A stretch of 64,000 nt of DNA from a virus (taxonomy: Duplodnaviria > Caudoviricetes), in IMG/VR virus record IMGVR_UViG_3300008740_000001, positions 32,001 through 96,000 of that record. The stretch is one strand, 5' to 3'. Position numbers and translations under genes: made by a program. This document shows, piece by piece, positions 2 to 32,313 of the stretch (the first letter of the stretch is position 1; every line of letters begins with the position of its first letter). Below the pieces are notes generated by a model. It did no database searches and was not told the DNA's origin. It worked only from the letters and a program-made list of their open reading frames with translations.

Positions 2-280
2 ACATCAAAATGCATTATCGGATCCCAGCAGGTACCATATATTTACGAAGATCGTGTATCTAAAGAGGATTTCCTCAAAGCCTTAGAAGACATCTACAAC
101 ATGACAGCCGAAGAAAGATTCGAATTAGGACTTCAAGGCAGAAACCATGTCATGACAAATTACAACTTTAGTGAATTTCAAGATTCTTGGAGAGAACTGG
201 TTGAAAAGACAATGGAATCTCACGGCTCTTGGGAAACTCGAAAAAATTATCAACGTTGGCACTTTATGGAGGTTGCATAA
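2..280 (+). CDS. Partial (3' end) GT4-family glycosyltransferase
   Basis: Frame 2 is open from the window edge: TSKCIIGSQQVPYIYEDRVSKEDFLKALEDIYNMTAEERFELGLQGRNHVMTNYNF...MEVA*. This resembles the C-terminal helices of GT-B/GT4 enzymes, and the stop abuts the next GT4 start. Confidence 0.65.
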   Translation, partial: TSKCIIGSQQVPYIYEDRVSKEDFLKALEDIYNMTAEERFELGLQGRNHVMTNYNFSEFQDSWRELVEKTMESHGSWETRKNYQRWHFMEVA

Positions 281-1555
281 ATGAAAAAGAAAGTTATTAT
301 TAGAGGACCAATTCTCACGCGGACTGGCTATGGAGAGCAAGCTAGATTTGCGTTTCGAGCCCTGAAGTCCCGTCCGGATTTGTTTGATGTATATGTGATG
401 CCTACAAATTGGGGCCACACTGGTTGGACCGTTGAAGATGATGAAAATCGCAGAGAGCTTGATCAGATTATTCGGGAGACTCCGATATATATCAATGAGT
501 GTAACGAGGCCCAAGTCCAGCCATTTGACATCTCTATTCAGGTTACTATCCCGCAAGAGTGGGAGCCATTGGCTGCCAACAATATTGGCTTCACAGCCGG
601 CACAGAAACGACACACATTTCTGCGAACTGGATAGAGAAATCAAATGAGGTCGACAGAATCATTGTAGTTTCAGAACACACGCGCTCTGGATTTGTGAAT
701 ACTGAATATAACGCAAAGGCGCGCAATGGTGCCGATGTCGTATTGAGATGTGCTACTCCTGTAGATGTTGTGAATTTTCCTGTTAAGCATGTAGAACCCG
801 AAGAACTGGACTTTGAGCCAAGTACGGAGTTCAACTTTTTAACAGTCGCACAATGGTCGCCCCGTAAAAACTTGGAACATACAGTTAAGTGGTTTATCGA
901 GGAGTTTATCGATAACGAAAATGTCGGCTTAATTCTCAAGGCCAACATTGCAAAGAATTGCCTTCTTGATAGGGTTGCGATAAATCAGCGCCTGTCTGAA
1001 CTAACGGCTAAATATCCAGATCGGAAATGCAAGATCTATCTTTTGCACGGTAACCTCACTGATGAGGAGATGGCCGGCCTGTATCAGCATCCCAAGGTCA
1101 AAGCTTTGGTTAATATTGCTCACGGAGAAGGGTTTGGTCTGCCGATGTTTGAGGCTGCAGCTAACGCGTTGCCGATTGTTGCTCCAAACTGGGGAGGCCA
1201 GAAGGACTACTTAAGTGCGGAAGTTACCACTAAGCGAAAGGGCAAGAAGACCACAAAGACGCGATGTTTGGCCACAAAGGTTGATTATACTCTAGGGCCA
1301 ATCCAAGCGGAAGCGGTTTGGGAAAATGTCTTAATTCCAGAATCATCATGGTGTTATCCAACAAAGACTGCTTATAAGAAAGCACTCCAGACGGTATATA
1401 AGAACCACAATAGGATGGTTAGTGATGCCAAGAAGCTGCAGGCTAGTATTGTAGAGAATTTTTCCGAAGAAAATCAGATTGAGAAATTTGTCGACTCTGT
1501 GCTTAAAACCACTGGGGCGAGTTCTTCTGAATTTAGTAAGGTTGTTACATTATGA
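281..1555 (+). CDS. GT4 (GT-B fold) glycosyltransferase
   Basis: 424 aa. Donor-binding motif HGEGFGLPMFEAAANALPIV, plus FNFLTVAQWSPRKN. Confidence 0.9.
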   Translation: MKKKVIIRGPILTRTGYGEQARFAFRALKSRPDLFDVYVMPTNWGHTGWTVEDDENRRELDQIIRETPIYINECNEAQVQPFDISIQVTIPQEWEPLAANNIGFTAGTETTHISANWIEKSNEVDRIIVVSEHTRSGFVNTEYNAKARNGADVVLRCATPVDVVNFPVKHVEPEELDFEPSTEFNFLTVAQWSPRKNLEHTVKWFIEEFIDNENVGLILKANIAKNCLLDRVAINQRLSELTAKYPDRKCKIYLLHGNLTDEEMAGLYQHPKVKALVNIAHGEGFGLPMFEAAANALPIVAPNWGGQKDYLSAEVTTKRKGKKTTKTRCLATKVDYTLGPIQAEAVWENVLIPESSWCYPTKTAYKKALQTVYKNHNRMVSDAKKLQASIVENFSEENQIEKFVDSVLKTTGASSSEFSKVVTL

Positions 1556-2817
1556 CAACAAAGGTGCTATATCAAGGTCAGGTTTATGACCCAAGCGGAT
1601 ACGCCGTCGCCGGCCGAGGCTATATTCGTTCAATGTATGATTACATTAAGGCCAATAACTTAGATATGGAACTTAGAGTTGTGGCTGTTAGTGCTGACCA
1701 GCATAAGAGCTTGACAGAAGAAGAGACCAAGTTCCTCGATTCTCTAGGTTTTGATTCAGCAGAGGCTATGGACGAGTGGATTGAAGATGAAGATTATCAT
1801 TATATTTTTCATCACCCACCGGTATATGCTTGGAAACTGCCAATTACCAAGAAGCTTGCGGCACGCTCATTAACTACAACGTGTTTTACTGTGTGGGAAA
1901 CAGACGAGATCCCACCTGTTTGGAATGACATTTTTGAATCTTTTGATGTTGATAAGGTTGTGGTGCCCTGTAAGTGGAATCGTGACAGTTTTGTACAAAG
2001 CTTGCAGAAATTTGATCGCCCCCGCCCCGTCGAAATGGTGCCACACCTTATCAACGATAACTTTATCGAGTCGGACAACGCAGTTACTGAAATTGAAGGG
2101 TTCCCGATGAATAAGGATGCCTTTAAGGTATTGACAGTGGGCCAATGGACAGATCGTAAAGCACTCAAAGCAGTCGTAAAGGCCTTCTTGATGGAGTTTA
2201 AGGATAATACAGACTGTGAACTCATTGTAAAAACATATGGCAATATTCAAGATCCACGACCGGAGATGCAGACTGCGCAACAGCAATCGATTGCTCAGGA
2301 GATGGTTATACTGAAACAGTCTATCCTCGGGAACAGTTTGACCGATTTACCTAAGTGTTCTTTACACCTATTGTATGGTCTTTTTCCCAAAGATCAGATG
2401 AACTATTTGTTTAAAGAAGCAGACTTGTTTGCTTTACTTAGCAAGGCAGAAGGCTTCGGCTTGCCTATCGCAGAAGCAATTGCTAGCGAAACACCTGTTT
2501 TGGTCCATGACAAGGGTGGCCATGTTGGCTTTACCGATCCTGAGAATAATTTTTTAGTTGACTGTCACCTTACTCCCGCTAATTGTACTGTATTTCCTTT
2601 TGTTTACTCCTGCGATAGCAACTGGTTTGATACTGATTATCTTTCAGCCAGAAAACAATTTCGAGCGGCATACAATGCATGGAAGGAAGACAAGGCAGCA
2701 TATACCGCTCGCGCCACCGCCTCGAAGGCGTATATGTTAAACGTCACCGGCGATAGCTTAGTATTAGGCAAAAAGCTGGTTGATTTTGTTGTAGGCGAGA
2801 ATGCACAAGAGGACTAG
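1552..2817 (+). CDS. GT4 (GT-B fold) glycosyltransferase, paralog of upstream gene
   Basis: 421 aa. KAEGFGLPIAEAIASETPV and FKVLTVGQWTDRK motifs. ATGA overlap with the upstream gene. Confidence 0.9.
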   Translation: MTTKVLYQGQVYDPSGYAVAGRGYIRSMYDYIKANNLDMELRVVAVSADQHKSLTEEETKFLDSLGFDSAEAMDEWIEDEDYHYIFHHPPVYAWKLPITKKLAARSLTTTCFTVWETDEIPPVWNDIFESFDVDKVVVPCKWNRDSFVQSLQKFDRPRPVEMVPHLINDNFIESDNAVTEIEGFPMNKDAFKVLTVGQWTDRKALKAVVKAFLMEFKDNTDCELIVKTYGNIQDPRPEMQTAQQQSIAQEMVILKQSILGNSLTDLPKCSLHLLYGLFPKDQMNYLFKEADLFALLSKAEGFGLPIAEAIASETPVLVHDKGGHVGFTDPENNFLVDCHLTPANCTVFPFVYSCDSNWFDTDYLSARKQFRAAYNAWKEDKAAYTARATASKAYMLNVTGDSLVLGKKLVDFVVGENAQED

Positions 2818-3571
2818 AGAAACCAAAAGAGCTTTAAACCGGCTTAACACTTACCACGAAAAAGTCGCTCATTTGAAAGATTTATATGCAAATGAGCGAT
2901 TATTTTTGTTGGCACCGGGCCCTTCTCTGGGAGAGGTGGACGAGCAAGAACTAAGGGCGAAATTAAAAAATAGCCTTACTTTTTCTGTAAAACAAGCTTA
3001 TCTTAAGTATAAAAACGAAACAGACTTTCACTTCATCAACGATTGCAATTTGCCGATGATTAACGGGTACCCCGGATATGTATATGGAATAAAATCTGGG
3101 CCCATAACAATCGCTTCCAGCGGATACCCAGAGGAGCATGCTAGGCAGAGATACGCGCACCATCAGCATTGGGACATTTTTTGTCGAGTCCTAGATCCGC
3201 TGGTATATCAGGATCAGAACCTTCAGCGTTTGTGTGAGAGTAATGATTTTGATTCTGGCTTGTTCGATAATATGCTTGATCGCCCATGTGGCCCAAGCAT
3301 AACCCTAGAGACAGTTCTTTATATGGCAGTGCATGTTGGAGCCAAAGACATATACGCTATTGGTTGGGATAGTGGTGATAAGGCCGGAGAACATTTCTAC
3401 GATGACGAAACACACCTGACCAGCAATCGAGAATTTGAATATGCAATGGTGCAAAAAGCTTCCAGTCCATTGTATAATTGGCTAAAGGAGCAAGGAGTAA
3501 ACTTGCACTTAATTAGCAAAATCAGCGCTCTAAGCGATGAAATCCCCAGACTAAATTTAAAGGATATATAA
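2801..3571 (+). CDS. DUF115/Maf-like (GT29/GT42-fold) putative nonulosonate transferase
   Basis: LLAPGPSL N-terminal Rossmann motif and AVHVGAKDIYAIGWD...EHFYD C-terminal motif. Confidence 0.6.
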   Translation: MHKRTRETKRALNRLNTYHEKVAHLKDLYANERLFLLAPGPSLGEVDEQELRAKLKNSLTFSVKQAYLKYKNETDFHFINDCNLPMINGYPGYVYGIKSGPITIASSGYPEEHARQRYAHHQHWDIFCRVLDPLVYQDQNLQRLCESNDFDSGLFDNMLDRPCGPSITLETVLYMAVHVGAKDIYAIGWDSGDKAGEHFYDDETHLTSNREFEYAMVQKASSPLYNWLKEQGVNLHLISKISALSDEIPRLNLKDI

Positions 3572-4398: not shown

Positions 4399-4399
4399 A

Positions 4400-5386
4400 A
4401 TGGAACTTGGTGCGCATTGGGGCCCATATCAGTTGGTTTTTAACAAAAACAACAAAGAAATGTTAAGCGAACACATAAGTGGCGTGCTACAATATATGAG
4501 ATATTATCCAAATTCAGTCTACGAAAACATATGGCTAGACGGGAATACTAATGAGTTGTTTAGTGCATCTCAAACTCTTTCTACTGGCAAATGTCCCATA
4601 AACCACATGTTCTGTTTGACACGCGAAGAATTCATCAATGATCAATATCCGACACACCAGCTTGGAATGAAACACAATTACGATGCGTTAAGGAATGTTT
4701 TTCTTAGTGAGAACACATTTGAGGCAATAAGTACAGAATTAAAATGTGGAGTCAACGAAGATCTGTTATCGCTAAGACACCAAGAAAAGGTTTTAATTGT
4801 GGGCGGAGGCCCTTCTACAAAACAAGTCGACTTTGCGAAACATAAAGATACTCCAGTTTGGACCATGAACGAGTTTTGGAAAAATCCGGTATTTGAATTT
4901 TTTAACAACATTCAGGCGGTGGCCTTGTGTGATGACGTTGATATCAATAGTTCGCAGCTGTGGGATTCGATTAATAATAATAATGCTGTGGTCCTGCAAG
5001 AGTTAAGTGATTTGGGCCCTGAGCGTGTCCAGTCAATTTATAACAAGGCCGGCCGGTCGACGTTTATTCATACACGATACAGATCAAAGCTGGGCATTGG
5101 CCCGAGAATGATTGTTTTAGCGATTATCCTAGGGGCCAAAGACATATATTTTTGTGGACTAGATGGCTATGATTCTGCTTCTGACGATACACACTCCTTT
5201 GAGTCTGGCAAAGACTATCCATATTGGTTCAAAGTGGGGGGTCACGCAATGCAAGCCCAGCAGCATGTGGTAACTTGGGATTATATTTTAAACTTTTTAA
5301 GACCCAGTTATGATTTCCGATTACACGATTTGTCTGCTGGAATGCCAAGTGTTAAGTATGGTTTTATGCAAGAGAATATTAAGTGA
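4400..5386 (+). CDS. Putative sialyl/nonulosonyl-transferase (CstII/GT42-like) with an unassigned N-terminal ~120-aa domain
   Basis: VLIVGGGPSTKQVDF...VWTMNEFW and LAIILGAKDIYFCGLDGY resemble the CstII motifs IIAGNGPSLKEIDY...FRCNQFY and AIALGYKEIYLSGIDFY. Lies between neuB and neuA. Confidence 0.65.
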   Translation: MELGAHWGPYQLVFNKNNKEMLSEHISGVLQYMRYYPNSVYENIWLDGNTNELFSASQTLSTGKCPINHMFCLTREEFINDQYPTHQLGMKHNYDALRNVFLSENTFEAISTELKCGVNEDLLSLRHQEKVLIVGGGPSTKQVDFAKHKDTPVWTMNEFWKNPVFEFFNNIQAVALCDDVDINSSQLWDSINNNNAVVLQELSDLGPERVQSIYNKAGRSTFIHTRYRSKLGIGPRMIVLAIILGAKDIYFCGLDGYDSASDDTHSFESGKDYPYWFKVGGHAMQAQQHVVTWDYILNFLRPSYDFRLHDLSAGMPSVKYGFMQENIK

Positions 5387-6072
5387 AAGATATTAACGAA
5401 ATAGCAGTAGTAATTCAGGCCCGCCTCGGCTCCCAGCGCGTTCCACGAAAAATGATTCGACCATTTGCAGACACAACTCTTCTTGATGTTGCATTAAAGA
5501 AGATTAGGCGATGCACTTCTTTTTCTCAAAATAATTTTTATTTGTCGGCGCATGAGCCAGAACTGGTGCTTCTTGGCGAAAAACACGGAGTCAACGTTTA
5601 CCGTCGATCAGCCAAGTCTGCGAATTCCGAAGGTACCCCCATGACTGAGATGTATGAATGGTGGGACCGCCTACCACATAAATATTGCGTATTGATAAAC
5701 GCATGCGCACCTTTTTTGCGTCCTGAGACAATAGACAACTTTGTAGAGGCCTACAAAATAAGCGATCAAGATGGGCTTTTTGGTGTAATTCATAAAAAAA
5801 ATTATTTTTGGAACGAACAACGAGAACTGTTAACTCCTCTTACCGAAGCGGTGATGAATACCAAGACGGTACCCGCAACATATGAGGCGGCTCATTGTCT
5901 CTACGCCGGCCGATTGGATAAAATAGGGGAAGATATATGGATGGGAAACTTTAATACACCGGGAGAAATAGGGCTATACATAATGGACGAGAAAGAAGCC
6001 TTGGACATTGATTATGAATGGCAATTTAATACATATGAAAAGCTATATAGAACATTATCAGAAGTGCGTTAA
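5383..6072 (+). CDS. neuA: CMP-nonulosonate synthetase (acylneuraminate cytidylyltransferase family) #1
   Basis: IQARLGSQRVPRKMIRPF N-terminal motif and EALDIDYEWQF C-terminal motif. GTG start overlaps the upstream stop. Confidence 0.85.
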   Translation: MKDINEIAVVIQARLGSQRVPRKMIRPFADTTLLDVALKKIRRCTSFSQNNFYLSAHEPELVLLGEKHGVNVYRRSAKSANSEGTPMTEMYEWWDRLPHKYCVLINACAPFLRPETIDNFVEAYKISDQDGLFGVIHKKNYFWNEQRELLTPLTEAVMNTKTVPATYEAAHCLYAGRLDKIGEDIWMGNFNTPGEIGLYIMDEKEALDIDYEWQFNTYEKLYRTLSEVR

Positions 6073-6094
6073 GCAAGCCCATGGGCCTGACCAT

Positions 6095-6868
6095 ATGTTC
6101 CTTGTCAAGCCAGTCTCCCCCGAGGATACTTTAGGCGAAGATATCGATTTAACACTAGAGGAGAATATTGAAACTTCAAAAGAATTCCGACAATTAGTAA
6201 AGTCGTTGAGTTTGAAAGTTTCGGATATTTTCCAAGACGGGACTCACATTCAAAGTACTTCGTTTTCGAACGAAATAATGGACACGCTGCAATTCCCCGA
6301 AGTTCATGAAATTTATGAACTTGCGTATGAACAGTTATTCAACTTGTATAAGTGTCACGTTACTACTAATCGTATACAAATATATCAAAACATATATTCC
6401 AAAGATACACCTTTGTCTTCATGGCAATGGCACTATGATGACAATCCTGTTCCGCAAAGAAAACTGTTTGTCTACTTGACGGATGTTGGTAGAGATGACG
6501 CTCCCTTTTGTTACTTGGGTGGCCCAACCGTTATTGGTACCACCCGAGATCAAGAGAGTACTGCATATCCATACAGAGTTGGGTCCTCGCGGATCTCACC
6601 TACCTATAGAAAAGAACAGGTGTTTAAAACTTCAAGAATTCCCGATCATTATATACGAAAGTTGCAAATGCGCCACGATGCCAGAGAATATTTTATCTTG
6701 GGCGAAGCAGGCACATCTTTTGTCTTTGATCCCAATATTATTCATAGAGCCACGATTCCCAAGCAGGGTCATCAACGCATAGCGCTTGTTTATCATCTTC
6801 ATCCGACATTGGAGAAGACTGAGCTACAAAATTTTTACAACAAGGATGTTAAAGTATATGCAATCTGA
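6095..6868 (+). CDS. PhyH-like Fe(II)/2-oxoglutarate-type dioxygenase
   Basis: QWHYDD (HxD), KLFVYLTDV and FVFDPNIIHRA (distal His). Start moved from the track's TTG at 6008 to ATG 6095 (uncertain). Confidence 0.75.
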   Translation: MFLVKPVSPEDTLGEDIDLTLEENIETSKEFRQLVKSLSLKVSDIFQDGTHIQSTSFSNEIMDTLQFPEVHEIYELAYEQLFNLYKCHVTTNRIQIYQNIYSKDTPLSSWQWHYDDNPVPQRKLFVYLTDVGRDDAPFCYLGGPTVIGTTRDQESTAYPYRVGSSRISPTYRKEQVFKTSRIPDHYIRKLQMRHDAREYFILGEAGTSFVFDPNIIHRATIPKQGHQRIALVYHLHPTLEKTELQNFYNKDVKVYAI

Positions 6869-7721
6869 CAAAACATCATGCTTCGTGATCCCGTGCAAAT
6901 ATAGTAAAGAGATCCCGATTATTTTTAACTGCCTAAAGAGCATAAGAAAATTTCATCCGGATGATGAAATCTTTGTAGTAGACAGCAATTCAGAAGATAA
7001 AAGCTATTTTCAAGAGGCCTCCGAACAATATGGGGCTACGGTTTTAGATGTATCAAATAACAATTATTTAACCGGCGCCATTTGGTATGTGTTCAATCAT
7101 TACAAAAGGGACTTTTATTACTGTATTCACGATTCAATAGAACTGCTAGATAATCTCGCATCGCTGCAAGAACACAGAGTCTCACCTATTATGTACCATA
7201 AGCACTGGGAATGGCCCAAGGAACCCGAGACGGGAATGCGTATAGTTGACTGGTCAAAACAGCAAATAAAGAGCCACACTAATTTCACTTTTAGAGCCAG
7301 TGACTTTTATATTCTTCTGGGCGCAATGATGTGCTGCAAGAGGGAAGTCCTTGAAGGACTTAAAATGCAGGGGTTTGATAAGATCGTGCCATCCAACAAG
7401 TATCAAGAAGAATGCACGGAGAGATTGTGGGGATTCGCACTGGGAGAAATGGGATATAATCAAGACATAGAAGAAAACTCTATCCTCGGGCCCATGCGCC
7501 AAGGGCAAGGTCTCGGAACTGATTTTATTTCTAGCATTGCAGAAGATGATGATAGGGTTGTCTTTGAGGGAGTTAAATATTATAAGGATCCTGTCGGCAA
7601 ATATCATTTAGGAAATACGGACAGGGTGGTGTTGGATGACATACCCTTTGCTTTAAAACGAAACAAAATGTATGACGGTGACAAAGTGGTAAAATACTGG
7701 TGCAGCGTTAAGAGGAAGTAA
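6858..7721 (+). CDS. GT2-like (GT-A) glycosyltransferase
   Basis: FVIPCK...CLKSIRKFHPDDEIFVVDSNSED N-terminal GT-A motif, plus IHDS. ATG 6858 overlaps the upstream stop. Confidence 0.6.
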   Translation: MQSDKTSCFVIPCKYSKEIPIIFNCLKSIRKFHPDDEIFVVDSNSEDKSYFQEASEQYGATVLDVSNNNYLTGAIWYVFNHYKRDFYYCIHDSIELLDNLASLQEHRVSPIMYHKHWEWPKEPETGMRIVDWSKQQIKSHTNFTFRASDFYILLGAMMCCKREVLEGLKMQGFDKIVPSNKYQEECTERLWGFALGEMGYNQDIEENSILGPMRQGQGLGTDFISSIAEDDDRVVFEGVKYYKDPVGKYHLGNTDRVVLDDIPFALKRNKMYDGDKVVKYWCSVKRK

Positions 7722-7722
7722 G

Positions 7723-11913: not shown

Positions 11914-12823
11914 GGACATCATAACAACTATGCCGGATTATAATGTTAGAATCTTAGTCTGTGGTATGTCGCGCAGTGGCAGTACGCTGTTAGTAAAAAT
12001 GATACGAAAGTATTTCGCTGAATACCACGGTTTAGTTTTACCAGTGTTGAGTAATAAACAGTTCTTGAACGCCCCACCTCGTTCGGGCAATTACATTGTC
12101 AAGACACACGTTCCAGATGTTAGTATTAAAAGAAAATACAAGCACGACCAACCCCGGGACCCTGATGATAAAGAACTTAAACAATATTTCTCGCTTACTG
12201 ATATTTTCCGTACAAAAAGAGATATAAGAGATGCAGCTGCTTCAGAAATTATAAGTTTGAACCTGCGTGAGCATTTCTTTCCGAGCGATGCCAAGGCGCT
12301 CCTAACTAAAAACGAAGATTACGAGTCTCCTTACTTAAGGGAAATTGTTAAAAAATTACACAGAGAACATATGATTTGGGCACATACCTTATCCCGCGTC
12401 CACACTCATCCAGATTTTACAGCATCCAGCACTAACACCAAGTGGTATGAGTGGAAATATGAAGATAGTATATCTGATCAGCACGCGGCATTTCGAAACG
12501 TTTTAGCGTTTTTAAAAGAAAGGCACGACTTTATCGAAGATTTGGACGACGCCTCTATCGCAAATTTGCTGGCCTCGCTGCCCGATCCAGTAGAATTACC
12601 TCGCAGCGAGGACGACTTCCGAGGCCTGCCTAGAGAATTCTGGAGAGACCCCGAAAAATTCGCAAGCGAGAACGTACCCTACAAAAAGAGGCTTGGTTGG
12701 GATGTGGGGGTGTCTAGTACCGGCGGCAAAATTGGATATTATAAAGAATTTTTTACAAAAGAACAATTAAAAGTCATTGATGGACAATGTGTTCAGTGGC
12801 TAAAAAGGAATGGTTATAAATGA
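11906..12823 (+). CDS. PAPS-dependent sulfotransferase (P-loop type)
   Basis: VCGMSRSGSTLL 5'-PSB loop and RTKRDIRDAAAS 3'-PB-like motif. Confidence 0.7.
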   Translation: MARDIITTMPDYNVRILVCGMSRSGSTLLVKMIRKYFAEYHGLVLPVLSNKQFLNAPPRSGNYIVKTHVPDVSIKRKYKHDQPRDPDDKELKQYFSLTDIFRTKRDIRDAAASEIISLNLREHFFPSDAKALLTKNEDYESPYLREIVKKLHREHMIWAHTLSRVHTHPDFTASSTNTKWYEWKYEDSISDQHAAFRNVLAFLKERHDFIEDLDDASIANLLASLPDPVELPRSEDDFRGLPREFWRDPEKFASENVPYKKRLGWDVGVSSTGGKIGYYKEFFTKEQLKVIDGQCVQWLKRNGYK

Positions 12824-13752
12824 AAAGATTGATTGTAACGACAGCAGATGATAAATTTGCACCCGGCACTGCTTTATTGTTATATTCCCTTAAAAGAAAT
12901 ATGGTGAGATTCGCAGAAACTGACGTAAAGGTGCTGTATACAAATTTGTCCGATGAGAATAAGAAAATGATTAAAAGTGTACTCTCTAGAGTACAGTTTG
13001 AAAAACCAGATATGGATTTTTGCGCAGGTATTAAGACGCTTTACGGCGCCGACAACCAAGACACTTATTTGTGTCTTGAGGCATTTAGACAACACGAATA
13101 CGATCAAGTAATATGCTTAGATAGTGATATGCTTTGTATAGGGGACATCTCCCCGTTGCTCGGCTATGATAAGGTAATCATGGCATGTATTGGAAAAAGA
13201 AACCTTAACACAAAAGAACAGACCTATCATCATGGAATTGACAAGTTTAATGCCGGCTTTATGGTGATTGGTAAGCAAATTCTACAGAACAATAGGGTGT
13301 ATCAAGACTTGACATCAATAGTACGACATATTAGAGACAACAAGCGTGATGGCCTATACAACGTCTTTGGTGATAATCGAAAAGTGTTTAACGATCAGGA
13401 TGTAATAAGAGTATACTTTAGCAGTGCTCCAACACATATTCTGCCGGATTGGTATAATTTTAAGAATTTTTGTTTGGGCCCAAACTTTGAAGAAACAAAC
13501 AAGATTTTCGATACTCACCAAAACGACGTAAAGATTCTGCATTTTTCGGGGAAAAGAAAACCATGGGCGAATAAGACGGACCGCTCTGGTGGACCCGTTG
13601 ACGGGAAGATAGCAGGGATTTATGATGTCTGCTCAGTGGCAGATCCGGAGGAAATGAACAACAGCGCCGCCTGTCACATATGGCACGATTATTATGAAGA
13701 ATGTTTCGGAGAGAAGTGCATTAATGATTGGTACAGGCACGACAGGAGTTAA
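12820..13752 (+). CDS. GT8 glycosyltransferase
   Basis: VICLDSDML (DxD), FNAGFMVI, NDQDVI and ILHFSGKRKPW motifs. Confidence 0.88.
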   Translation: MKRLIVTTADDKFAPGTALLLYSLKRNMVRFAETDVKVLYTNLSDENKKMIKSVLSRVQFEKPDMDFCAGIKTLYGADNQDTYLCLEAFRQHEYDQVICLDSDMLCIGDISPLLGYDKVIMACIGKRNLNTKEQTYHHGIDKFNAGFMVIGKQILQNNRVYQDLTSIVRHIRDNKRDGLYNVFGDNRKVFNDQDVIRVYFSSAPTHILPDWYNFKNFCLGPNFEETNKIFDTHQNDVKILHFSGKRKPWANKTDRSGGPVDGKIAGIYDVCSVADPEEMNNSAACHIWHDYYEECFGEKCINDWYRHDRS

Positions 13753-13758
13753 GGCATC

Positions 13759-14493
13759 GTGAATATTTTAATTCCAATGGCCGGCGCCGGCTCTCGTTTT
13801 ACGCAAGAAGGCTACGAACTGCCTAAACCACTGATCGACATAGCCGGCCTCCCGATGATTCAGAGATGCATCAACAGCTTAGATATAACAGGACAGTATA
13901 TTTTTATCATTAGAAAATATGAGACTCTAGCTGAGACCATTTTACTTCGAGATATTTTGAAACAAATAACGGAAGAACCAATTATCATTGAAATAGATCA
14001 CGTTACAGAAGGCGCCGCATGTACATGCTTGTTGGCAAAGGAACATATAAACAATTCCGAACAACTGATTTCAGTCAATTGTGATCAGATAATGAATTGG
14101 GACTCTAAGGAGTTTCTAAATCTTGTAGAAGGTGCAAACGTTGATGGTTGTGTGGTAACATATAATTCTGATTCGATCAAAAATAGCTACATTGAACTAG
14201 ACGAGCAGGGGTTTGGCGTTCGGCTAGCCGAGAAGGATCCAATTAGTAACCTCTCTTTAACAGGAATCCACTATTGGAAACAGGGTCGCTACTTTGTAAA
14301 ATCGGCGGAAGCTATGATAAACGACAACATCAGAGTAAATAACGAGTTTTATGTGGCACCAACCTATAATCATATGATTTCGGATGGACTAAAGGTCAAC
14401 AATTATCATATTGAGAACTCCAACTTTCACCCTGTTGGTACTCCAGAAGATTTAAAGAAGTATCTTCATAGCCATTATGGTATAGAGAAATGA
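13759..14493 (+). CDS. Sugar-phosphate nucleotidyltransferase (GT-A NTP_transferase family)
   Basis: ILIPMAGAGSRF...PKPLIDI, ISVNCDQ and EFYVAPTYN motifs. GTG start. Confidence 0.85.
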   Translation: MNILIPMAGAGSRFTQEGYELPKPLIDIAGLPMIQRCINSLDITGQYIFIIRKYETLAETILLRDILKQITEEPIIIEIDHVTEGAACTCLLAKEHINNSEQLISVNCDQIMNWDSKEFLNLVEGANVDGCVVTYNSDSIKNSYIELDEQGFGVRLAEKDPISNLSLTGIHYWKQGRYFVKSAEAMINDNIRVNNEFYVAPTYNHMISDGLKVNNYHIENSNFHPVGTPEDLKKYLHSHYGIEK

Positions 14494-14816: not shown

Positions 14817-14818
14817 AA

Positions 14819-15517
14819 ATGGGAATTAATCATATAGGCAAGCTAGAGCGTCTTGAAACGGCGCTCCTACAAGCTGGAAAAGAATATCAAGGAGCAAAAG
14901 TGTGTGACTTGGGAAATCAAAGAATGTGGGAATCTGCTGCAGAAGGTTTGGGTATACCGATGGATTATTATGCAGGAGCTTATCTGCTTAAAGATTATTT
15001 TAAAAAGAAAAGGGTCTCTTTTCACACTTCAATCGATTTAAATGGAAAGGATGGTTCTTTGAGTCTAGATCTGACAAAACCAATTGATGTAGAAAAGATT
15101 GGGGGCCCCTTTACTGTGGTTACAAACTATGGTACTAGTGAACATGTGCCCGGTCAATATTGGTGTTTTAGAAATATTCATCATTTAGTAGAGCTTGGTG
15201 GCCTAATGTGTCATGTGGTGCCTCGTGTTGGAAATTGGGATGGCAAAAATTGTGGTTGCAAGAAACCTCATTGCCCATATTATTACGATACAGACTTTTT
15301 TGGTCTTTTGGCCGAGGCTAATGGTTATAAAATCATAGAGAACGATATATGCAATTATGATCACGAAACTCCCAAAAGAGCCCGGGAAGAATGTTTTGTA
15401 ATATATCAAAAGACCACAGAACAAGAGTTTGTTTCGCTCGATAAATTTGAAAAATTTCCAATAAAGTGTATTTCAAATCCGTCAAAAACAGGGAATTATT
15501 CCCCGGGAGGAAGATAA
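14819..15517 (+). CDS. SAM-dependent methyltransferase-like protein
   Basis: VCDLGNQ, SIDLN, LDLTKPI and VTNYGTSEHV...GGLMCHVVP motifs. Confidence 0.65.
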   Translation: MGINHIGKLERLETALLQAGKEYQGAKVCDLGNQRMWESAAEGLGIPMDYYAGAYLLKDYFKKKRVSFHTSIDLNGKDGSLSLDLTKPIDVEKIGGPFTVVTNYGTSEHVPGQYWCFRNIHHLVELGGLMCHVVPRVGNWDGKNCGCKKPHCPYYYDTDFFGLLAEANGYKIIENDICNYDHETPKRAREECFVIYQKTTEQEFVSLDKFEKFPIKCISNPSKTGNYSPGGR

Positions 15518-16510
15518 ATGTCAGAAACGGTTTTAGTAACCGGCGGAGCCGGCTTCATTGGCCATGCGGTAATTGAATATTTATTGGCCAACACAGATCA
15601 CAATGTGGTCTCACTAGATAGGTTGGATGTCTCAGGCAACTTGAATCGCTTGGGCGCCCTGATAGGGGAACATCCAGAATGGCGAACCCGACTAAGGATA
15701 GTGTGGCACGATCTTAAGGCCCCAGTGCACGATTACGTAATTAACAAAATTGGTCAGGTTGACTATATTTTACATTTGGCAGCCGGCTCACATGTTGATA
15801 GAAGCATTTTATATCCGCTGGAATATGTAATGGACAATGTTGTGGGCACATGTAACATCCTTGACTATGCACGTAAAGAGTGTGAAGATCTAAAGCTGTT
15901 TTTATATTTCAGCACGGATGAGGTCTTCGGCGCCGCCCCTCGTGGTATAACCTTTAAAGAAAATGATCGCTATAATGCCGGCAATCCTTATGCTGCATCT
16001 AAAGCTGCTGGGGAGGAGTTGTGTGTCGCATACGAAAATACATATAGCATGCCAATTATCATAACCCACACAATGAACGTATACGGACCTAGGCAGCATC
16101 CTGAAAAGTATTTGCCTCTTATTATCAACAAGGTGCTCAATGGAGATACACTGGAGGTGCATTCAAATCCGCAGCTTACAGAAGCTAGCAAGAGGCATTA
16201 TTTGCACTCTAGGGATGTAGCTGCAGCAGTTCATTTTTTGATGCAAAATCACAAAGTTGGCGAAAAATACAATATTGTGGCAAACGAAGAGACAGATAAT
16301 TTAGATTTAGCAATTAAGATTGCCGAAATCATTGGCAAGCCTTTAAAGTATAAATTGGTCGACCCACAGATTACCAGACCCCGCCATGACTTTCGTTACG
16401 CACTGTGCGGAGAAAAGCTGAGAGAAATGGGATGGACTCAGGAAATTGAACTTGTGTCGGGATTAGAAGAAGTTGTTCAATGGTTTATTGAAAACGAGCA
16501 CTGGAGGTAA
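15518..16510 (+). CDS. rmlB: NDP-sugar 4,6-dehydratase (RmlB-like extended SDR)
   Basis: VTGGAGFIG, HLAAGSHVDRSI, STDEVFG, YAASK and NVYGPRQHPEK motifs. Confidence 0.85.
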   Translation: MSETVLVTGGAGFIGHAVIEYLLANTDHNVVSLDRLDVSGNLNRLGALIGEHPEWRTRLRIVWHDLKAPVHDYVINKIGQVDYILHLAAGSHVDRSILYPLEYVMDNVVGTCNILDYARKECEDLKLFLYFSTDEVFGAAPRGITFKENDRYNAGNPYAASKAAGEELCVAYENTYSMPIIITHTMNVYGPRQHPEKYLPLIINKVLNGDTLEVHSNPQLTEASKRHYLHSRDVAAAVHFLMQNHKVGEKYNIVANEETDNLDLAIKIAEIIGKPLKYKLVDPQITRPRHDFRYALCGEKLREMGWTQEIELVSGLEEVVQWFIENEHWR

Positions 16511-16514
16511 TTAA

Positions 16515-16958
16515 ATGATTTGGATAGCACATAGGGGGAATATTGATGGCCCAAAACCCGAAATGGAAAACCGGCCGGAATATTTATTAGCCGCCACTGA
16601 AAAAGGTTATGATGTAGAAGTAGATGTTTGGCTAGCCGGAGATAAATTATTTCTTGGTCATGACGAGCCTCAATATGAAACAAATATCGAGTTTTTAAAT
16701 AATGAGCATTTTTGGTGTCATTGTAAAAATGCCGAAGCGCTCAAGCTTTTGCTTGAGCATGGAATTCACTGTTTCTTCCATATCGGAGATGATGTTACAT
16801 TGACCTCAAAGAACTACATCTGGACCTTTCCGAAGAAAAGATTGATCTCCGGAGCCATTTGTGTCATGCCAGAATATGGCTACAGGGGCGATATTGATGG
16901 ATGTATCGGCGTGTGCAGCGATAATATTCTTGAATGGGAGAAGCGATATAATGGCTGA
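16515..16958 (+). CDS. Minimal GDPD/PLC-like phosphodiesterase
   Basis: IAHRGN, GYDVEVDVW, LGHDEPQY and WCHCKN motifs. 147 aa. Confidence 0.7.
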   Translation: MIWIAHRGNIDGPKPEMENRPEYLLAATEKGYDVEVDVWLAGDKLFLGHDEPQYETNIEFLNNEHFWCHCKNAEALKLLLEHGIHCFFHIGDDVTLTSKNYIWTFPKKRLISGAICVMPEYGYRGDIDGCIGVCSDNILEWEKRYNG

Positions 16959-17301
16959 AGTATATACAGAAGAGCGTCCATGGGGCAAGTTTGAGAACCT
17001 ATTAGAATCAGATTACTGTAAAGTAAAGAGGATTACGGTTAACCCGGGTCAAAGGTTGAGTTATCAATATCACCATAAGCGTAATGAAGTTTGGACAATC
17101 GTGCAGGGTACTGGGCTGATAACTATAGACGACAACGCAACTTGGATCCAAAAAGGAACAACGGTTGAAATCCCCGCCGGCTCAAAACATAGGATTCAAA
17201 ACGCGACCGAGGGACCCCTTGTATTTATCGAGGTCCAGCACGGCTCCTATTTCGGTGAAGATGACATTGTAAGGATTAGTGATGATTACGAAAGAAACTG
17301 A
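16951..17301 (+). CDS. Stand-alone type II mannose-6-phosphate isomerase C-terminal cupin
   Basis: EERPWGKF, KVKRITVNPGQRLSYQYHHKRNEVW and FIEVQHGSYFGEDDIVR motifs. Start set at ATG 16951, which overlaps the upstream stop. Confidence 0.85.
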   Translation: MAEVYTEERPWGKFENLLESDYCKVKRITVNPGQRLSYQYHHKRNEVWTIVQGTGLITIDDNATWIQKGTTVEIPAGSKHRIQNATEGPLVFIEVQHGSYFGEDDIVRISDDYERN

Positions 17302-17926
17302 GGATAAAGTTTCAAAGGTGATTTGCAAAGACAAGGAATTGTTCTTTGTGCATATACCGAAAAACTATGGCACTTCAATAATGCACATCGTATTCCAAGA
17401 TATTCGCGGTGCCGCCACTCACATGACGGCGGATCAGATCAACTCGATAGAACAATATTCAGAGTATAAAAACTTTTGTTTTGTCAGAGATCCTATTGAA
17501 AGGTTCATAAGTGTATATTTGTGGCGTAAGCGAAAAGACGAGCTTATTGCCCCTTTGGGCCTTGCTGGTACGCTGGATCTTCTGTGTGAGTCGGGCATGA
17601 ATCAAGTAATTGGGAAAGATTTCCAAACTGAGCCAGACAAGCTTAATAGAATGTTTTTGAAACAATCAACGTGGGTTAATCAAAATACTGTATTTGTGGG
17701 CAGGTGTGAAAACTTTGTTTACGATTTGAACAGTTTGAAGAATAAGTATGATTTGGATTTCCCCATCCGCGAGCTTAAAACCAATCGTCAACTTAAGTCT
17801 ACAAAAAAAGAAACAAAAAGTAAACTTCTCAATATTTTTGATAATTCTCCCGACTTGAAGAATAAATTTTATGAATATTACGACGAAGATTACGAGCGCT
17901 TCCAATACAGTAGGGAGACCTCATGA
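17282..17926 (+). CDS. Sulfotransferase family 2 (HNK-1/CHST-like)
   Basis: FFVHIPKNYGTSI and FCFVRDPIERFIS motifs. Confidence 0.8.
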   Translation: MITKETEDKVSKVICKDKELFFVHIPKNYGTSIMHIVFQDIRGAATHMTADQINSIEQYSEYKNFCFVRDPIERFISVYLWRKRKDELIAPLGLAGTLDLLCESGMNQVIGKDFQTEPDKLNRMFLKQSTWVNQNTVFVGRCENFVYDLNSLKNKYDLDFPIRELKTNRQLKSTKKETKSKLLNIFDNSPDLKNKFYEYYDEDYERFQYSRETS

Positions 17927-18825
17927 CAGCAGAACAGAAATGGTTAACCCCAGATCATGCCGGTTTTTATAGGGGCGGCCACCCATCGGTGTATTGGTAT
18001 AATGATAGAGTCATGGAACGCAGAAAGTTGTATCCAAACTGGGAATCTCTGCGGGATGAAAATAAGGCTCTCACTGCAGTCGCCCACCGTGTAGCTCACG
18101 ACGGGTATTATAAAATTGAGGATTTTTGGAACACAGATTTGTTAGATCAGCTTAGAGATCAAACATTGCAACTTATGGAGCAAAACCACCCGGACAAAAT
18201 TAAACACCCCCAAGAAGGTCGCCATACACAGGTTTATATGCCTTTGTTGAATGCTCCTGTTGCAAATCAGCTGGCAACCGATCCACGCATCCTTGCTATA
18301 GCGACTGCTTTTCTAAATTGTTTCCCGGCATTAGGCACATCAAATTTACGATTGAGTACGGCGGAAAAGTCCGAATCAAAGGGCACCTGTATGTTCCATA
18401 GAGATTTTAACAGCCCAGTAAAGTTTATTAAGTTTTTTACATATCTCAACGACGTTACAATGGAAAATGGTCCGTTTACTTACGTGGAGGCCTCGAACAG
18501 AGAAATGCCAGTACAGCCACATTGGAGCACTCATCACCGATGGCCAGATGAAACAATAGAGTCGATTTATGGAAAAGATAGAATAAAGAACATAACGGCG
18601 AATTACGGCGATCTCTTGATAGCCACAACGGTTGGTTTTCACAAGGGCCTACAGTTACAAAAAGGCAGTCGATTAATGCTTACGTTGAATTATCTTGTAC
18701 ATCCCGAGCTTGGCGGACAGGGCATTTATGGTCCGCCCGAACAACCGCATCAAGTTTCAATGGAAACATTTAAGTCTACAAAGCACCCTGAATCTGGCTT
18801 GTACGATTTTATGACCAAGGTATGA
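17923..18825 (+). CDS. PhyH-like Fe(II)/2-oxoglutarate-type dioxygenase
   Basis: MFHRDFN (HxD), IKFFTYLNDVTMENGPF and TTVGFHKG motifs. Paralog-like to the 6095 gene. Confidence 0.78.
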   Translation: MTAEQKWLTPDHAGFYRGGHPSVYWYNDRVMERRKLYPNWESLRDENKALTAVAHRVAHDGYYKIEDFWNTDLLDQLRDQTLQLMEQNHPDKIKHPQEGRHTQVYMPLLNAPVANQLATDPRILAIATAFLNCFPALGTSNLRLSTAEKSESKGTCMFHRDFNSPVKFIKFFTYLNDVTMENGPFTYVEASNREMPVQPHWSTHHRWPDETIESIYGKDRIKNITANYGDLLIATTVGFHKGLQLQKGSRLMLTLNYLVHPELGGQGIYGPPEQPHQVSMETFKSTKHPESGLYDFMTKV

Positions 18826-18826
18826 A

Positions 18827-19660
18827 ATGAAAACTGCACTAATTATCCCGGGCCACATAAGAAATATAGACCAGACAATAGATAATCAAAAGTCAAAACT
18901 GATTAAGCCCAACGATTGTGATATTTTCGTGTATACATCAACCATGAATACTCAACGCTGGACCATCCACACTCAGGATCGCAGATACTATCATGCTCCG
19001 AAGGGCGAAATTCACCATAGCAACAGGTATTTGAAACAAAGCGCCGGCACTGTGGGTTCTATTTATCTTCTAGATAAAGAATATGTTGCAGATGTGTTAA
19101 GAAGGAATTATGGTGAAAGATTGAAAGGCTATGTCATAGAAGAAGAAATTCCAAATGACGCCAGCAGAGAACTGGATCACTTGAAATGGGAATTTCACAG
19201 AGTTAGACAATTTAAAAAAGCATACGAATGCAACAAATTAATGCATGAGCACGAAGAAGAGCATGGGTTTAAATATGATTTTGTCATCCGCGCCCGCACG
19301 GATATCACATTAGACCAAACAATCACTCCGGTTGATTACGCCAGTGCTTATATCAGTGAATATTCACGGGAAGAATACGAAAAGTCTGTATTTCTCTTTG
19401 GAGGCTGGCCCGATCCCACCGGAAGAAGCAAATCTGGTAGGGGGTTGTTTGATGGATTTGCTTTCGGCCACCCCACAGCGATGGATGTTTATTTTGATGT
19501 TTATAATACCAAAAAGATATACGAAAACAGTGGCCACCCAACGGATCTTGAACATCCCGCTAACCAGCTAGAACAACATATAGAAGAAAATAATGTGGAA
19601 CTGGTTTATCTTAAAGGCTGGACAGGGAAGCATAATCGGGGATATAAACTTACTAGGTGA
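18827..19660 (+). CDS. Hypothetical protein, possible glycosyltransferase
   Basis: KTALIIPGHIRN and FKYDFVIRARTD...FDGFAFG resemble uncharacterised viral GT-like proteins. Located within the glycan cluster. Confidence 0.4.
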   Translation: MKTALIIPGHIRNIDQTIDNQKSKLIKPNDCDIFVYTSTMNTQRWTIHTQDRRYYHAPKGEIHHSNRYLKQSAGTVGSIYLLDKEYVADVLRRNYGERLKGYVIEEEIPNDASRELDHLKWEFHRVRQFKKAYECNKLMHEHEEEHGFKYDFVIRARTDITLDQTITPVDYASAYISEYSREEYEKSVFLFGGWPDPTGRSKSGRGLFDGFAFGHPTAMDVYFDVYNTKKIYENSGHPTDLEHPANQLEQHIEENNVELVYLKGWTGKHNRGYKLTR

Positions 19661-19669
19661 AAATAACAA

Positions 19670-19990
19670 ATGATTGTATACATTGACATAGACGAAACAA
19701 TAGCAGACACACCAGCAGATAGGAATTACAGCCTATCGACACCAATTAGAGAAAATATTGAAAAAGCCAACAGATACTACGAAGATGGCCACACTGTTGT
19801 TTATTGGACAGCACGAGGCAGCGGCAGTGGAATTGATTGGTATGAGATAACCAGAGATCAACTTCAGTCATGGGGCGTCAAATACCATGAACTCAAGTTG
19901 GGAAAACCAATTTATGATTTATTCATTGATGATAAAGCAATGAACCCAGCAGAATGGGAAAACAAAGGAGAAAAAAATGAATCAGAATGA
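19670..19990 (+). CDS. Small capless HAD phosphatase (capsule-biosynthesis type)
   Basis: YIDIDETI (DxD), YWTARG, LGKP and FIDDK motifs. Confidence 0.8.
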   Translation: MIVYIDIDETIADTPADRNYSLSTPIRENIEKANRYYEDGHTVVYWTARGSGSGIDWYEITRDQLQSWGVKYHELKLGKPIYDLFIDDKAMNPAEWENKGEKNESE

Positions 19991-32289: not shown

Positions 32290-32306
32290 ATTTTATAAAA
32301 CTATTG

Positions 32307-32313
32307 CTAATTA
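32307..32313 (+). promoter_or_regulatory. Candidate late promoter element CTAATTA
   Basis: Intergenic, 26 nt upstream of the gp6-like ATG. Confidence 0.5.

Follow-up and report, generated by a model that had tools for sequence, protein, structure and literature searches.

A soluble, exporter-free sugar island in a marine T4-like phage: is the virion its acceptor?

Introduction

On which molecule does a phage place sugars that it makes, transfers and decorates with enzymes of its own? The question is raised by a block of sugar genes (the island) at the start of the stretch of DNA studied here, bases 32001-96000 of the IMG/VR record IMGVR_UViG_3300008740_000001. We refer to this whole 64,000-nucleotide stretch as the window, and positions are window positions unless marked as genome positions. 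The source is a complete genome of 203,859 bp with direct terminal repeats, assembled from marine metagenomes. The phage is T4-like, judging by a gene set that includes a gp23-type major capsid protein (242 bits), tail sheath, large terminase, tape measure, gp25, a gp6-like wedge protein and a gp55-like late sigma factor. Among cultured phages it is closest to Flavobacterium phage immuto, Microcystis phage Mel-JY01 and Rhodothermus phage RM378, with capsid protein identities of 43-51% over the conserved parts and gp6 identities of 31-32% to immuto and Mel-JY01. A megablast search of the window against 50,697 phage records returned no DNA-level matches.

We suggest that the island encodes an autonomous, lipid-carrier-independent system of cytoplasmic glycosylation. 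Its acceptor would be a component encoded by the phage, most probably a virion protein, and we give this reading an even chance. Gene content, enzyme solubility, synteny and the pattern of conservation are matters of observation. The acceptor, the order of the steps and the chemistry of the glycan are predicted from the genes.

Organisation of the island

The island comprised 26 co-oriented genes between genome position 31015 and window position 19990, starting 985 nt upstream of the window (Table 1). Spacing between neighbouring genes ranged from -98 to +9 nt, was typically -4 to +2 nt, and included no strand switch. All plus-strand open reading frames (ORFs) between positions 2 and 19990 were real genes. 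The co-oriented, tightly packed arrangement described in the initial annotation therefore stood, while its count of approximately 27 genes was replaced by 26 and the start moved about 1 kb upstream of the window. As had also been proposed, the strand did not switch before the sigma factor and baseplate genes, with a late-sigma-like gene, gp25 and a gp6-like wedge gene found downstream. A PD-(D/E)XK nuclease gene lies directly upstream of the first glycosyltransferase (GT) gene, GT4a.

Gene identities were assigned from Pfam, NCBIfam and PHROG profile matches, and the weaker ones using ESM Atlas, sequence motifs and AF2 models searched with Foldseek. ESM Atlas alone recovered methyltransferase 2, the GT-A-like DUF7796 protein and dioxygenase 2, whose Atlas record begins at residue 10 of ORF 6008..6868. 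These searches bore out the enzymes of sugar activation, transfer and tailoring listed previously, and added a RuBisCO-like protein that the list had omitted. The "GT4-conflict" Pfam matches were dropped because they cover only a generic 45-residue nucleotide-sugar motif, and a minus-strand ORF at 20046..20333, which is without a homologue in relatives, is probably spurious.

Absence of membrane, export and priming components

A Kyte-Doolittle scan found no transmembrane segment in any ORF of the cluster, and no amphipathic or transmembrane anchor was detected. The sole marginal hydropathy peak among these ORFs (1.65) was in the CstI/CstII-like protein. Six-frame searches of the complete genome detected no Bac_transf (PF02397), Polysacc_synt/Wzx (PF01943) or Glycos_transf_4/WecA (PF00953) domain, and the only polytopic protein in the genome was the tape measure; Wzy and the ABC-2 permease were checked by hydropathy only. 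The relatives sampled comprised 160 related loci (3111 ORFs), with subsets of 80 loci anchored on NeuB and 55 anchored on the sigma gene with at least 8 kb upstream. None of the 160 contained a Wzx-, Wzy-, ABC- or WecA-like membrane protein. Their few polytopic ORFs comprised holins, homologues of the giant protein, unassigned proteins and, outside an island, a single MFS transporter; no match to the glycan-export families scanned was obtained for any of them. Thus the proposal of a soluble pathway lacking its own exporter, polymerase and priming transferase holds both in this genome and in the related loci.

Soluble GT4, GT8 and GT42 enzymes also build the core of lipooligosaccharide (LOS) and lipopolysaccharide (LPS) on lipid A, without any need for Wzx, Wzy or a priming transferase, and this core is exported by the host MsbA/Lpt machinery. 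The absence of these genes, previously used to argue against a host envelope target, is real but carries less weight than was given to it, since the LOS/LPS core needs none of them.

Transferases

GT4a was well conserved at the positions expected to matter for catalysis, with E288-x7-E296 and R207/K208 invariant or nearly so in 46 sequences. The AF2 model of GT4a (pLDDT 91.6) had as its top PDB match the GT of chlorovirus NY-2A (3oy2, E 6.7e-23), which surpassed cellular GT4 enzymes by five orders of magnitude. The structural neighbours that followed were small-molecule GT4/GT20 enzymes, namely MshA, BshA, sucrose-phosphate synthase and OtsA. The capsid protein of chloroviruses receives its glycans from soluble GTs of the virus itself, and we take the top match as a hint that the acceptor may be a virion or other phage protein.

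Three further proteins had been described as GT42/Maf-like. They do share GxGPS...(L/V/W)DG motifs, but only one passes a Pfam threshold: the 227-aa MAF_flag10/MptE-like protein exceeded the gathering threshold of PF01973, whereas the 256-aa Maf/sialyltransferase-fold protein 1 (17.2 bits) and the 328-aa CstI/CstII-like protein (17.5 bits) fell below it. The first of these carries GTGPS...GVDG motifs and has weak PseD-domain and WaaZ matches. Maf-fold protein 1 has APGPS...GWD motifs and matched the alpha-2,3-sialyltransferase family phrog_4603 (E 0.002). The CstI-like protein has an extra N-terminal domain of approximately 120 aa and narrowly missed the cut-off of PF06002. Foldseek searches with its AF2 model (pLDDT 88.9) returned the MptE HPPK 8sd5, CstII (1ro8), CstI (2p2v) and also 9c08, with E between 1e-5 and 2e-4 and TM scores by target of 0.46-0.58. 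Its GGGPS motif is accompanied by H265, nearly invariant in 21 sequences. According to the model, this protein, the most conserved of the three, has a GT42/MptE-type fold with a GxGPS motif and a conserved His. The full-length Maf architecture (approximately 600 aa with flagellin-binding flanks) was not found in any of the three, and the NCBIfam PseD match spanned only positions 224-389 of 640, scoring 25 bits against a cut-off of 670.

Among the remaining island proteins, the modelled structure of the DUF7796 protein gave TM scores of 0.55-0.69 to Glyco_transf_92 and Nucleotid_trans clusters. Sulfotransferase 1 contains an RSGST motif resembling the 5'-phosphosulfate-binding (5'-PSB) motif.

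Predicted sugar chemistry

The NeuB-family synthase has the TIM-barrel domain over its full length (PF03102, positions 1-241). It lacks the C-terminal SAF/antifreeze-like domain, its 275 aa aligning to positions 1-274 of 329 in TIGR03569. Its scores were below the equivalog cut-offs (TIGR03569, 274 against 399.65 bits; PseI, 198 against 340), and its top PDB match, 6ncs, which is the best solved relative, is likewise short. No NeuC and no Pse/Leg amino-sugar enzyme (PseB/C) was present in the phage set, which does include two mini-HAD phosphatases, one mannose-6-phosphate isomerase (PMI) and one GmhA-like isomerase. One of the two phosphatases is part of the SIS-HAD fusion, which has weak SIS and Hydrolase_6 matches and a DFDGV motif I at residue 214. 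The other, at the 3' end of the island, carries a DIDET motif I and matched PDB 9iqw, a "capsule biosynthesis protein" (E 5.6e-14). Taken together, the missing NeuC, Pse and Leg enzymes, the SAF-less NeuB, the mini-HADs and the two isomerases suggest an ulosonate route through phosphorylated intermediates, Kdn-like or higher, with two CMP-activating enzymes. A second product, an NDP-6-deoxyhexose, is suggested by the RmlA-like transferase, RmlB and a 147-aa partner; placement of the 147-aa protein between the nucleotidyltransferase and RmlB is a recurrent arrangement in relatives. Adenosine 5'-phosphosulfate (APS) kinase was not found, so the sulfate donor 3'-phosphoadenosine 5'-phosphosulfate (PAPS) must come from the host.

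The RuBisCO-like gene sits between methyltransferase 1 and sulfotransferase 1. Its product matched PDB 2cwx (E 2.7e-38) and the DK-MTP-1-P enolase 2oej (E 3.6e-34), and scored far below the cut-off of every NCBIfam equivalog (rubisco_III, 175 against 497; MtnW, 125 against 514; OiaX, 138 against 700). By these matches it is a protein of RuBisCO large-subunit fold outside the characterised equivalogs. It was absent from all 160 related loci.

Conservation and variability in the marine lineage

Relatives of the island are widespread. NeuB relatives were recovered from 246 IMG/VR viral contigs at 70-90% identity and relatives of the sigma gene from at least 599 viral contigs, and GT4a had thousands of homologues at 63-76% identity in ocean metagenomes. 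An IMG/VR single-protein scan with the MptE-like gene returned no relatives.

All 55 sigma-anchored loci had sugar genes directly ahead of u20467 (a 124-aa protein) and sigma, with content that varied strongly even among close relatives. The kept order was PhoH, u28877, a metallopeptidase-like gene, the PD-(D/E)XK nuclease, GT4a, GT4b, in some cases GT4c, NeuB, the CstI-like gene and NeuA, followed by a variable stretch and then by the mini-HAD, u20467, sigma, u21496, u23213, the giant protein, gp25 and gp6. Among the 80 NeuB-anchored loci the CstI-like gene was present in 76, NeuA in 73, GT4b in 58, the mini-HAD in 50 and GT4c in 28. At 21.8 kb, the island described here was the largest seen; in all but one relative with both anchors its length was 8.6-17.6 kb. 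The exception (L032) had an island of 2.7 kb, with the ulosonate genes upstream of the nuclease. PhyH-type dioxygenases were frequent in the related islands, and neither a Sulfotransfer_3-type sulfotransferase nor a Methyltransf_24 methyltransferase was among the genes tallied in the 160 loci.

Median identities within the lineage were 60% for GT4a and PhoH, 62% for sigma, 46% for GT4b, 31% for GT4c and 29% for the CstI-like protein. Conservation that falls along the gene order in this way fits a fixed acceptor and a variable outer glycan. We also compared loci L030-L042 and L072-L084 with L005-L029. In these sub-lineages NeuB, the mini-HAD and NeuA were 75, 54 and 51% identical, with backbone genes (nuclease, GT4a) at 25-32%, which suggests that the ulosonate cassette has been exchanged horizontally between phage lineages. 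Outside the lineage, the T4-like cyanophage AG-345-L05 (Kyanoviridae, MH319754.1) has a co-oriented island of approximately 15 kb at 10855-25908, with RmlB, NeuB and mini-HAD respectively 56, 45 and 37% identical to those of the phage studied here. The mini-HAD gene was found beside NeuB in a cyanophage and a huge phage.

The GT4a-GT4b pair in cultured and huge phages

Orthologues of GT4a were identified in immuto, Mel-JY01, RM378 and the 484-kb huge phage LR756508.1, and orthologues of GT4b in the three cultured phages (immuto gp180, Mel-JY01 WWT39375 and RM378 p014). The pair in immuto (gp181 and gp180) follows a PD-(D/E)XK nuclease and is followed by an 11-kb sugar island encoding a GT2, two WecE aminotransferases, a methyltransferase, a mannosyltransferase, an acetyltransferase, an epimerase and another GT. 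Mel-JY01 has the pair together with further GTs and a methyltransferase, and RM378 has the pair alone, among replication genes. LR756508.1 has the nuclease, GT4a and approximately 20 genes including RmlB-like, NeuB and mini-HAD genes, about 200 kb from its sigma and gp6 genes. The hosts of the carriers of the pair are Bacteroidota, Rhodothermus and Cyanobacteria. Since GT4a and GT4b are kept across host envelopes as different as these, a phage-borne acceptor is the simpler reading, and the earlier preference for such an acceptor over a host-specific one gains support. We consider that the acceptor is probably phage-borne.

The acceptor

We propose that the conserved GT4a and GT4b would put the first sugars on the acceptor, using NDP-hexoses of the host. 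The variable part of the island would supply a CMP-ulosonate through the PMI or the GmhA-like isomerase, the SAF-less NeuB, a mini-HAD phosphatase and NeuA, in that order, and the RmlA-like transferase and RmlB would supply an NDP-6-deoxyhexose by a second route. The glycan would then be extended by GT4c, GT2, GT8, DUF7796 and the three GT42/Maf-fold proteins as ulosonate transferases. Tailoring would involve the methyltransferases, the sulfotransferases with host PAPS, the PhyH dioxygenases and the RuBisCO-like enzyme. If the island is transcribed before the late genes, as one unit running into the late-sigma gene, sugar pools would be ready when the structural proteins appear.

The soluble enzymes with intact catalytic motifs, the lack of transmembrane or exporter genes and the occurrence of the island throughout the marine lineage were counted in favour of this proposal. 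Several late structural proteins (window 34141-49923 and genome 112025-128461) contained 4-10 times as many [ST]GS tripeptides as expected from composition: 9 against 0.9 in a 501-aa protein, 21 against 5.7 in the 4753-aa giant protein, 8 against 1.9 in an 828-aa protein, 7 against 1.4 in the tail sheath and 6 against 0.8 in a 286-aa protein. This excess lends weak support to a virion acceptor. The gp23-type major capsid protein (genome 120460-122304, 614 aa) has a central insertion at approximately residues 113-354, about 80 aa longer than that of immuto and unalignable with it. When this insertion was examined as a possible acceptor no Ser/Thr tract was found, and the proteins encoded directly downstream of the sigma gene had no obvious glycosylation tracts.

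The timing of expression was considered from promoter motifs. A candidate late promoter, ACTATTTAT(A/T)A, had 14 exact-core sites, all on the plus strand. Of these, 11 stand 16-81 nt ahead of a gene start, and the tail sheath gene has one in front of it. The terminase and tape-measure operons are preceded by slightly degenerate ACTAATTAT copies, at genome positions 101516 and 130387. The top promoter-like site upstream of the island was of sigma-70 type (TTGACA-16-TGnTATATT, genome 28833-28860). Promoter-like and terminator-like sites inside the island were at background level, and none of 16 relatives had a promoter-like site directly before the sigma gene. Late transcription requires the late sigma factor to be present already, and the island is therefore most likely part of an early or middle transcription unit continuing into the sigma gene. 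Later transcription may occur as well, given that the late motif precedes PhoH, upstream of the block, in 9 of 24 relatives. For this reason, and because early sugar enzymes fit every reading, timing was rejected as a decisive discriminator. The proposed coupling of the island to the tail module is not supported in any functional sense, as the island has no late promoter, is preceded by a sigma-70-type one and stands upstream of the late-sigma gene, and as the homologous islands of immuto and LR756508.1 are far from the sigma and baseplate genes. What was observed is adjacency, in the marine lineage only.

Several points weigh against a virion acceptor. The [ST]GS excess could merely reflect beta-rich fibre proteins. 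GT8, GT4, GT42, GmhA-like and KdsB-like enzymes are also part of the LOS/LPS-core toolkit, and the Maf-fold proteins, trimmed to the catalytic domain, resemble the glycan-acting CstI/CstII at least as much as the protein-acting Maf. The GT4a-GT4b pair lies among replication genes in RM378 and Mel-JY01. Adjacency to the sigma and baseplate genes was seen in all 55 marine relatives, but it is not kept in immuto or LR756508.1. No late-motif site scoring at least 13 was found between genome positions 10811 and 67368, and none in or near the island. Finally, no metatranscriptome contained the sequence, three RNA runs searched at 80% likeness yielding no contigs.

The best surviving alternative, which we nevertheless consider unlikely, is remodelling of the host envelope. 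The soluble GTs, working on the cytoplasmic side of the inner membrane, would modify host lipid A-core or host intermediates carried by undecaprenyl diphosphate or destined for ABC export, and host MsbA/Lpt, Wzx or ABC machinery would export the altered glycan, thereby blocking superinfection or the loss of progeny to debris and infected cells. The LOS-like toolkit fits this, comprising GT8, GT4, the CstI/II-like GT42 fold, the GmhA-like and KdsB-like enzymes and a weak WaaZ match, and as an LOS core needs no Wzx, Wzy or phosphoglycosyltransferase, their absence was not counted against it. The sigma-70-type promoter and a location ahead of the late-sigma gene agree with early expression, the changing content of a fixed site recalls O-antigen loci, and AG-345-L05 has a similar NeuB/mini-HAD/RmlB island. 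However, the phages that carry GT4a and GT4b infect Bacteroidota, Rhodothermus and Cyanobacteria, which differ in lipid A-core structure. The island is universal, rather than sporadic, in an apparently lytic lineage, and the 160 loci without a membrane or export component, together with the lack of any detected anchor, also speak against this reading.

Another cytoplasmic target, be it a conserved host protein, a non-structural phage protein or a soluble glycoside or oligosaccharide, seems to us improbable. It would account for the small-molecule GT4/GT20 enzymes that follow the chlorovirus GT among the neighbours of GT4a, for the bare pair amid the replication genes of RM378 and for early or middle expression as judged from promoter motifs, and a conserved intracellular target would explain conservation across host phyla. 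Yet up to approximately 10 transferases, ulosonate capping, tailoring and content that varies among close relatives are typical of exposed surface glycans under diversifying selection, and atypical of an intracellular regulator or a metabolite.

DNA hypermodification, in which the GTs would glycosylate a modified base, as in T-even glucosyl-hmC or base J, and the neighbouring nuclease would destroy unmodified host DNA, is very improbable: the nuclease-GT4a neighbourhood is kept with GT4b in this phage, immuto and Mel-JY01 and also in LR756508.1, the pair lies within the replication module of RM378 and Mel-JY01, PhyH-type dioxygenases recur in the islands and phage GTs build diverse DNA glycans (Pyle et al. 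2024, as cited in PMC12619734), but the genome has no ThyA-like (PF00303), TET/JBP (PF12851) or TGT/DpdA (PF01702) match at E <= 0.1, acidic, sulfated glycans on packaged DNA would be physically implausible, and published LC-UV-MS of the DNA of immuto, which carries a homologous island, detected only dA, dC, dT and fdPreQ1, with no glycosylated nucleoside reported (bioRxiv 10.1101/2023.04.13.536721).

Relation to known systems

Viral glycosylation machineries are already known from giant viruses and mycobacteriophages. Those of giant viruses produce the capsid glycans of PBCV-1 and NY-2A and, in Megavirinae, the fibril glycans, which are encoded in clusters. Like the island, they are virus-encoded clusters that combine nucleotide-sugar synthesis with soluble cytoplasmic GTs, work independently of host lipid carriers and vary in content between clades, and the top match of GT4a is the NY-2A enzyme. 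Unlike the island, which belongs to a phage of bacteria and has a predicted chemistry of ulosonate, sulfation and a RuBisCO-like protein, they belong to viruses of eukaryotes and their virion glycans have been demonstrated.

Mycobacteriophages are, to our knowledge, the only bacterial viruses in which glycosylation of the particle is documented. Certain of them use soluble GTs of their own to modify, in the cytoplasm, the proteins of capsid and tail tube (Freeman et al. 2023, as cited in PMC12619734). The likeness lies in these phage-encoded soluble cytoplasmic GTs. These mycobacteriophages, in contrast, are unrelated siphoviruses with only a few GT genes, and they are not known to carry sugar-activation pathways or ulosonate, sulfo- or methyl-tailoring enzymes. 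The "moraphage" jumbo phages are reported to have core GTs but no NeuB (PMC12619734), and no tie to this lineage was found. We searched the literature on phage nonulosonate and sialic-acid pathways and on virion glycosylation and found no description of this island.

The flagellin glycosylation islands of Campylobacter, Helicobacter and Aeromonas (Maf/PseD/PseE) share with it the NeuB family, CMP-transferases and MAF_flag10/DUF115 proteins in a cytoplasmic, lipid-carrier-free system. The phage proteins, however, are 227-328 aa cores without flagellin-binding domains, no PseB/C or NeuC is present, and there are many extra GTs. LOS sialylation in Campylobacter (CstI/CstII, NeuBCA) offers the fold of the CstI-like protein and soluble or peripheral enzymes that add a terminal ulosonate. 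There the acceptor is lipid A-core, whereas the phage protein has an extra N-terminal domain and a sub-threshold PF06002 match. The "LPS" islands of cyanophages have been proposed to change the host surface and so block superinfection or adsorption of progeny. Those of P-SSM2 and S-SM2 also occur in marine T4-like phages and are variable islands of NDP-sugar and GT genes, but they are sporadic, while the island described here is universal in its lineage, larger and anchored by GT4a-GT4b. DNA glucosylation in T-even phages and other glycan hypermodification of phage DNA resemble the present case in their GT-B-fold transferases and in the adjacency of a nuclease, and differ in that this genome has no hydroxymethylase or other base-modifying enzyme.

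As a tentative extension, which we consider possible although doubtful, a clade of T4-like phages comprising immuto, RM378, Mel-JY01, the huge phage and the marine lineage of at least 599 contigs may sugar-coat its virions. A GT4a-GT4b primer would be combined with a horizontally exchanged, variable extension island, giving phage "serotypes" like those of O-antigens; the glycan would here be methylated, sulfated and ulosonate-capped, with a RuBisCO-like enzyme recruited. If the virion is the acceptor, particle glycosylation would be a core, diversifying trait of one of the most widespread marine myovirus lineages, with consequences for how ocean viruses adsorb, stick to marine gels, are grazed, decay and are recognised by hosts. 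New sugar chemistry would come with it (the SAF-less NeuB route, sulfation and a RuBisCO-like protein in a glycan pathway) as would soluble, lipid-carrier-independent transferases of possible use in glycoengineering. Should the host envelope be the target, the island would instead be a lineage-wide device for superinfection exclusion or receptor masking. The question is directly testable in the three cultured relatives that have the GT4a-GT4b core.

Table 1. Genes of the island, flanking genes and candidate late promoter sites (window positions unless marked as genome positions)
Feature	Position	Strand	Evidence or remark
GT4a, 421 aa	genome 31015-32280; window 2..280 (C-terminal end)	+	Glycos_transf_1 42.9 bits; first island gene
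GT4b, second GT4, 424 aa	281..1555	+	Glycos_transf_1 26 bits
GT4c, third GT4, 421 aa	1552..2817	+	Glycos_transf_1 44.4 bits
Maf/sialyltransferase-fold protein 1, 256 aa, weak	2801..3571	+	MptE-like 17.2 bits, below cut-off
NeuB-family ulosonate synthase without SAF domain, 275 aa	3571..4398	+	PF03102 264.6 bits
CstI/CstII-like (GT42-fold) putative ulosonate transferase, 328 aa	4400..5386	+	PF06002 24.5 bits, cut-off 25
CMP-ulosonate synthetase 1 (NeuA/KdsB family)	5383..6072	+	CTP_transf_3 51.3 bits; weak PseF/KdsB
PhyH-like 2OG-Fe(II) dioxygenase 2	6035..6868	+	ESM Atlas 0.97; TM score 0.77 to PhyH clusters
GT2 glycosyltransferase	6786..7721	+	Glycos_transf_2 25.7 bits
CMP-ulosonate synthetase 2	7723..8376	+	CTP_transf_3 80.5 bits; PseF 90 bits, below cut-off
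GmhA-like SIS sugar-phosphate isomerase and mini-HAD phosphatase fusion	8376..9359	+	GmhA models 40-44 bits
MAF_flag10/MptE-like transferase, 227 aa, catalytic domain only	9343..10026	+	PF01973 53.6 bits, cut-off 34.6
Methyltransferase 1 (Methyltransf_24 / O-methyltransferase type)	10010..10732	+	47.6 bits
RuBisCO-like protein, large-subunit fold, 394 aa	10729..11913	+	RuBisCO_large 115.8 bits
Sulfotransferase 1, weak	11903..12823	+	Sulfotransfer_3 26.6 bits, cut-off 27; GMSRSGST motif
GT8 glycosyltransferase	12820..13752	+	Glyco_transf_8 51.4 bits, full length
Sugar-1-phosphate nucleotidyltransferase (RmlA/AglF-like)	13759..14493	+	NTP_transf_3 24 bits; rmlA_long, AglF ~42 bits
108-aa protein of a phage family	14490..14816	+	phrog_24762 E 3e-35; no PDB match
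Class I SAM methyltransferase 2	14819..15517	+	ESM Atlas 0.97; TM score 0.74-0.77 to Methyltransf_11/23 clusters
NDP-hexose 4,6-dehydratase (RmlB-like)	15518..16510	+	GDP_Man_Dehyd 182, Epimerase 179, TIGR01181 260 bits
147-aa protein	16515..16958	+	phrog_34507 E 2e-26; no PDB match
Mannose-6-phosphate isomerase cupin	16861..17301	+	MannoseP_isomer 112.5 bits; GMP_PMI C-terminal region 122 bits
Sulfotransferase 2	17279..17926	+	Sulfotransfer_2 44.7 bits; HIPKNYGTS 5'-PSB motif
PhyH dioxygenase 1	17923..18825	+	PhyH 33.4 bits
DUF7796, probable GT-A-fold transferase	18827..19660	+	ESM Atlas 0.98 to DUF7796 and viral "capsular polysaccharide biosynthesis" clusters
Mini-HAD phosphatase, 106 aa, island 3' end	19670..19990	+	phrog_1238 E 7e-28
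Flanking 124-aa protein (u20467)	20467..20841	+	N-terminal hydrophobic helix (hydropathy 2.70, residues 8-26)
Flanking gp55-like late sigma factor	20813..21517	+	phrog_234 E 1.9e-7
Flanking baseplate wedge genes, gp25-like and gp6-like	31897..34141	+	PF04965 55.4 bits; phrog_219 E 2e-21
Candidate late promoter sites	35368, 57469, 57485, 62583	+	exact core
Candidate late promoter sites	genome 6506, 10811, 108759, 116770, 119336, 125474, 157027, 163623, 171847, 178424	+	exact core

Neighbouring genes and hints to the host

The flanking protein u20467, which stood between the island and the sigma gene in all 55 sigma-anchored loci, has an acidic poly-Glu tail and gave no Pfam or PHROG match. A gene at genome 29160-29885, ahead of the nuclease and GT4a, codes for a probable small metallopeptidase of 241 aa. 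The protein matched the anthrax lethal factor N/C-terminal domain family (ATLF) at 25.7 bits, below threshold, and was kept at this place in 27 of the 80 loci.

Intergenic spacers of the early region (genome 187941-195753) contain canonical TTGACA...TATAAT promoters, often with two to three tandem TTGACA boxes. These motifs suggest a host whose sigma-70 is classical, which sets it apart from the Bacteroidota hosts of the nearest cultured relative. One sequencing run from 2025, labelled by organism name rather than as a metagenome, contained 77-93% of the words of window positions 1-10000 together with many diverged relatives, and may represent a host-associated or enrichment sample.

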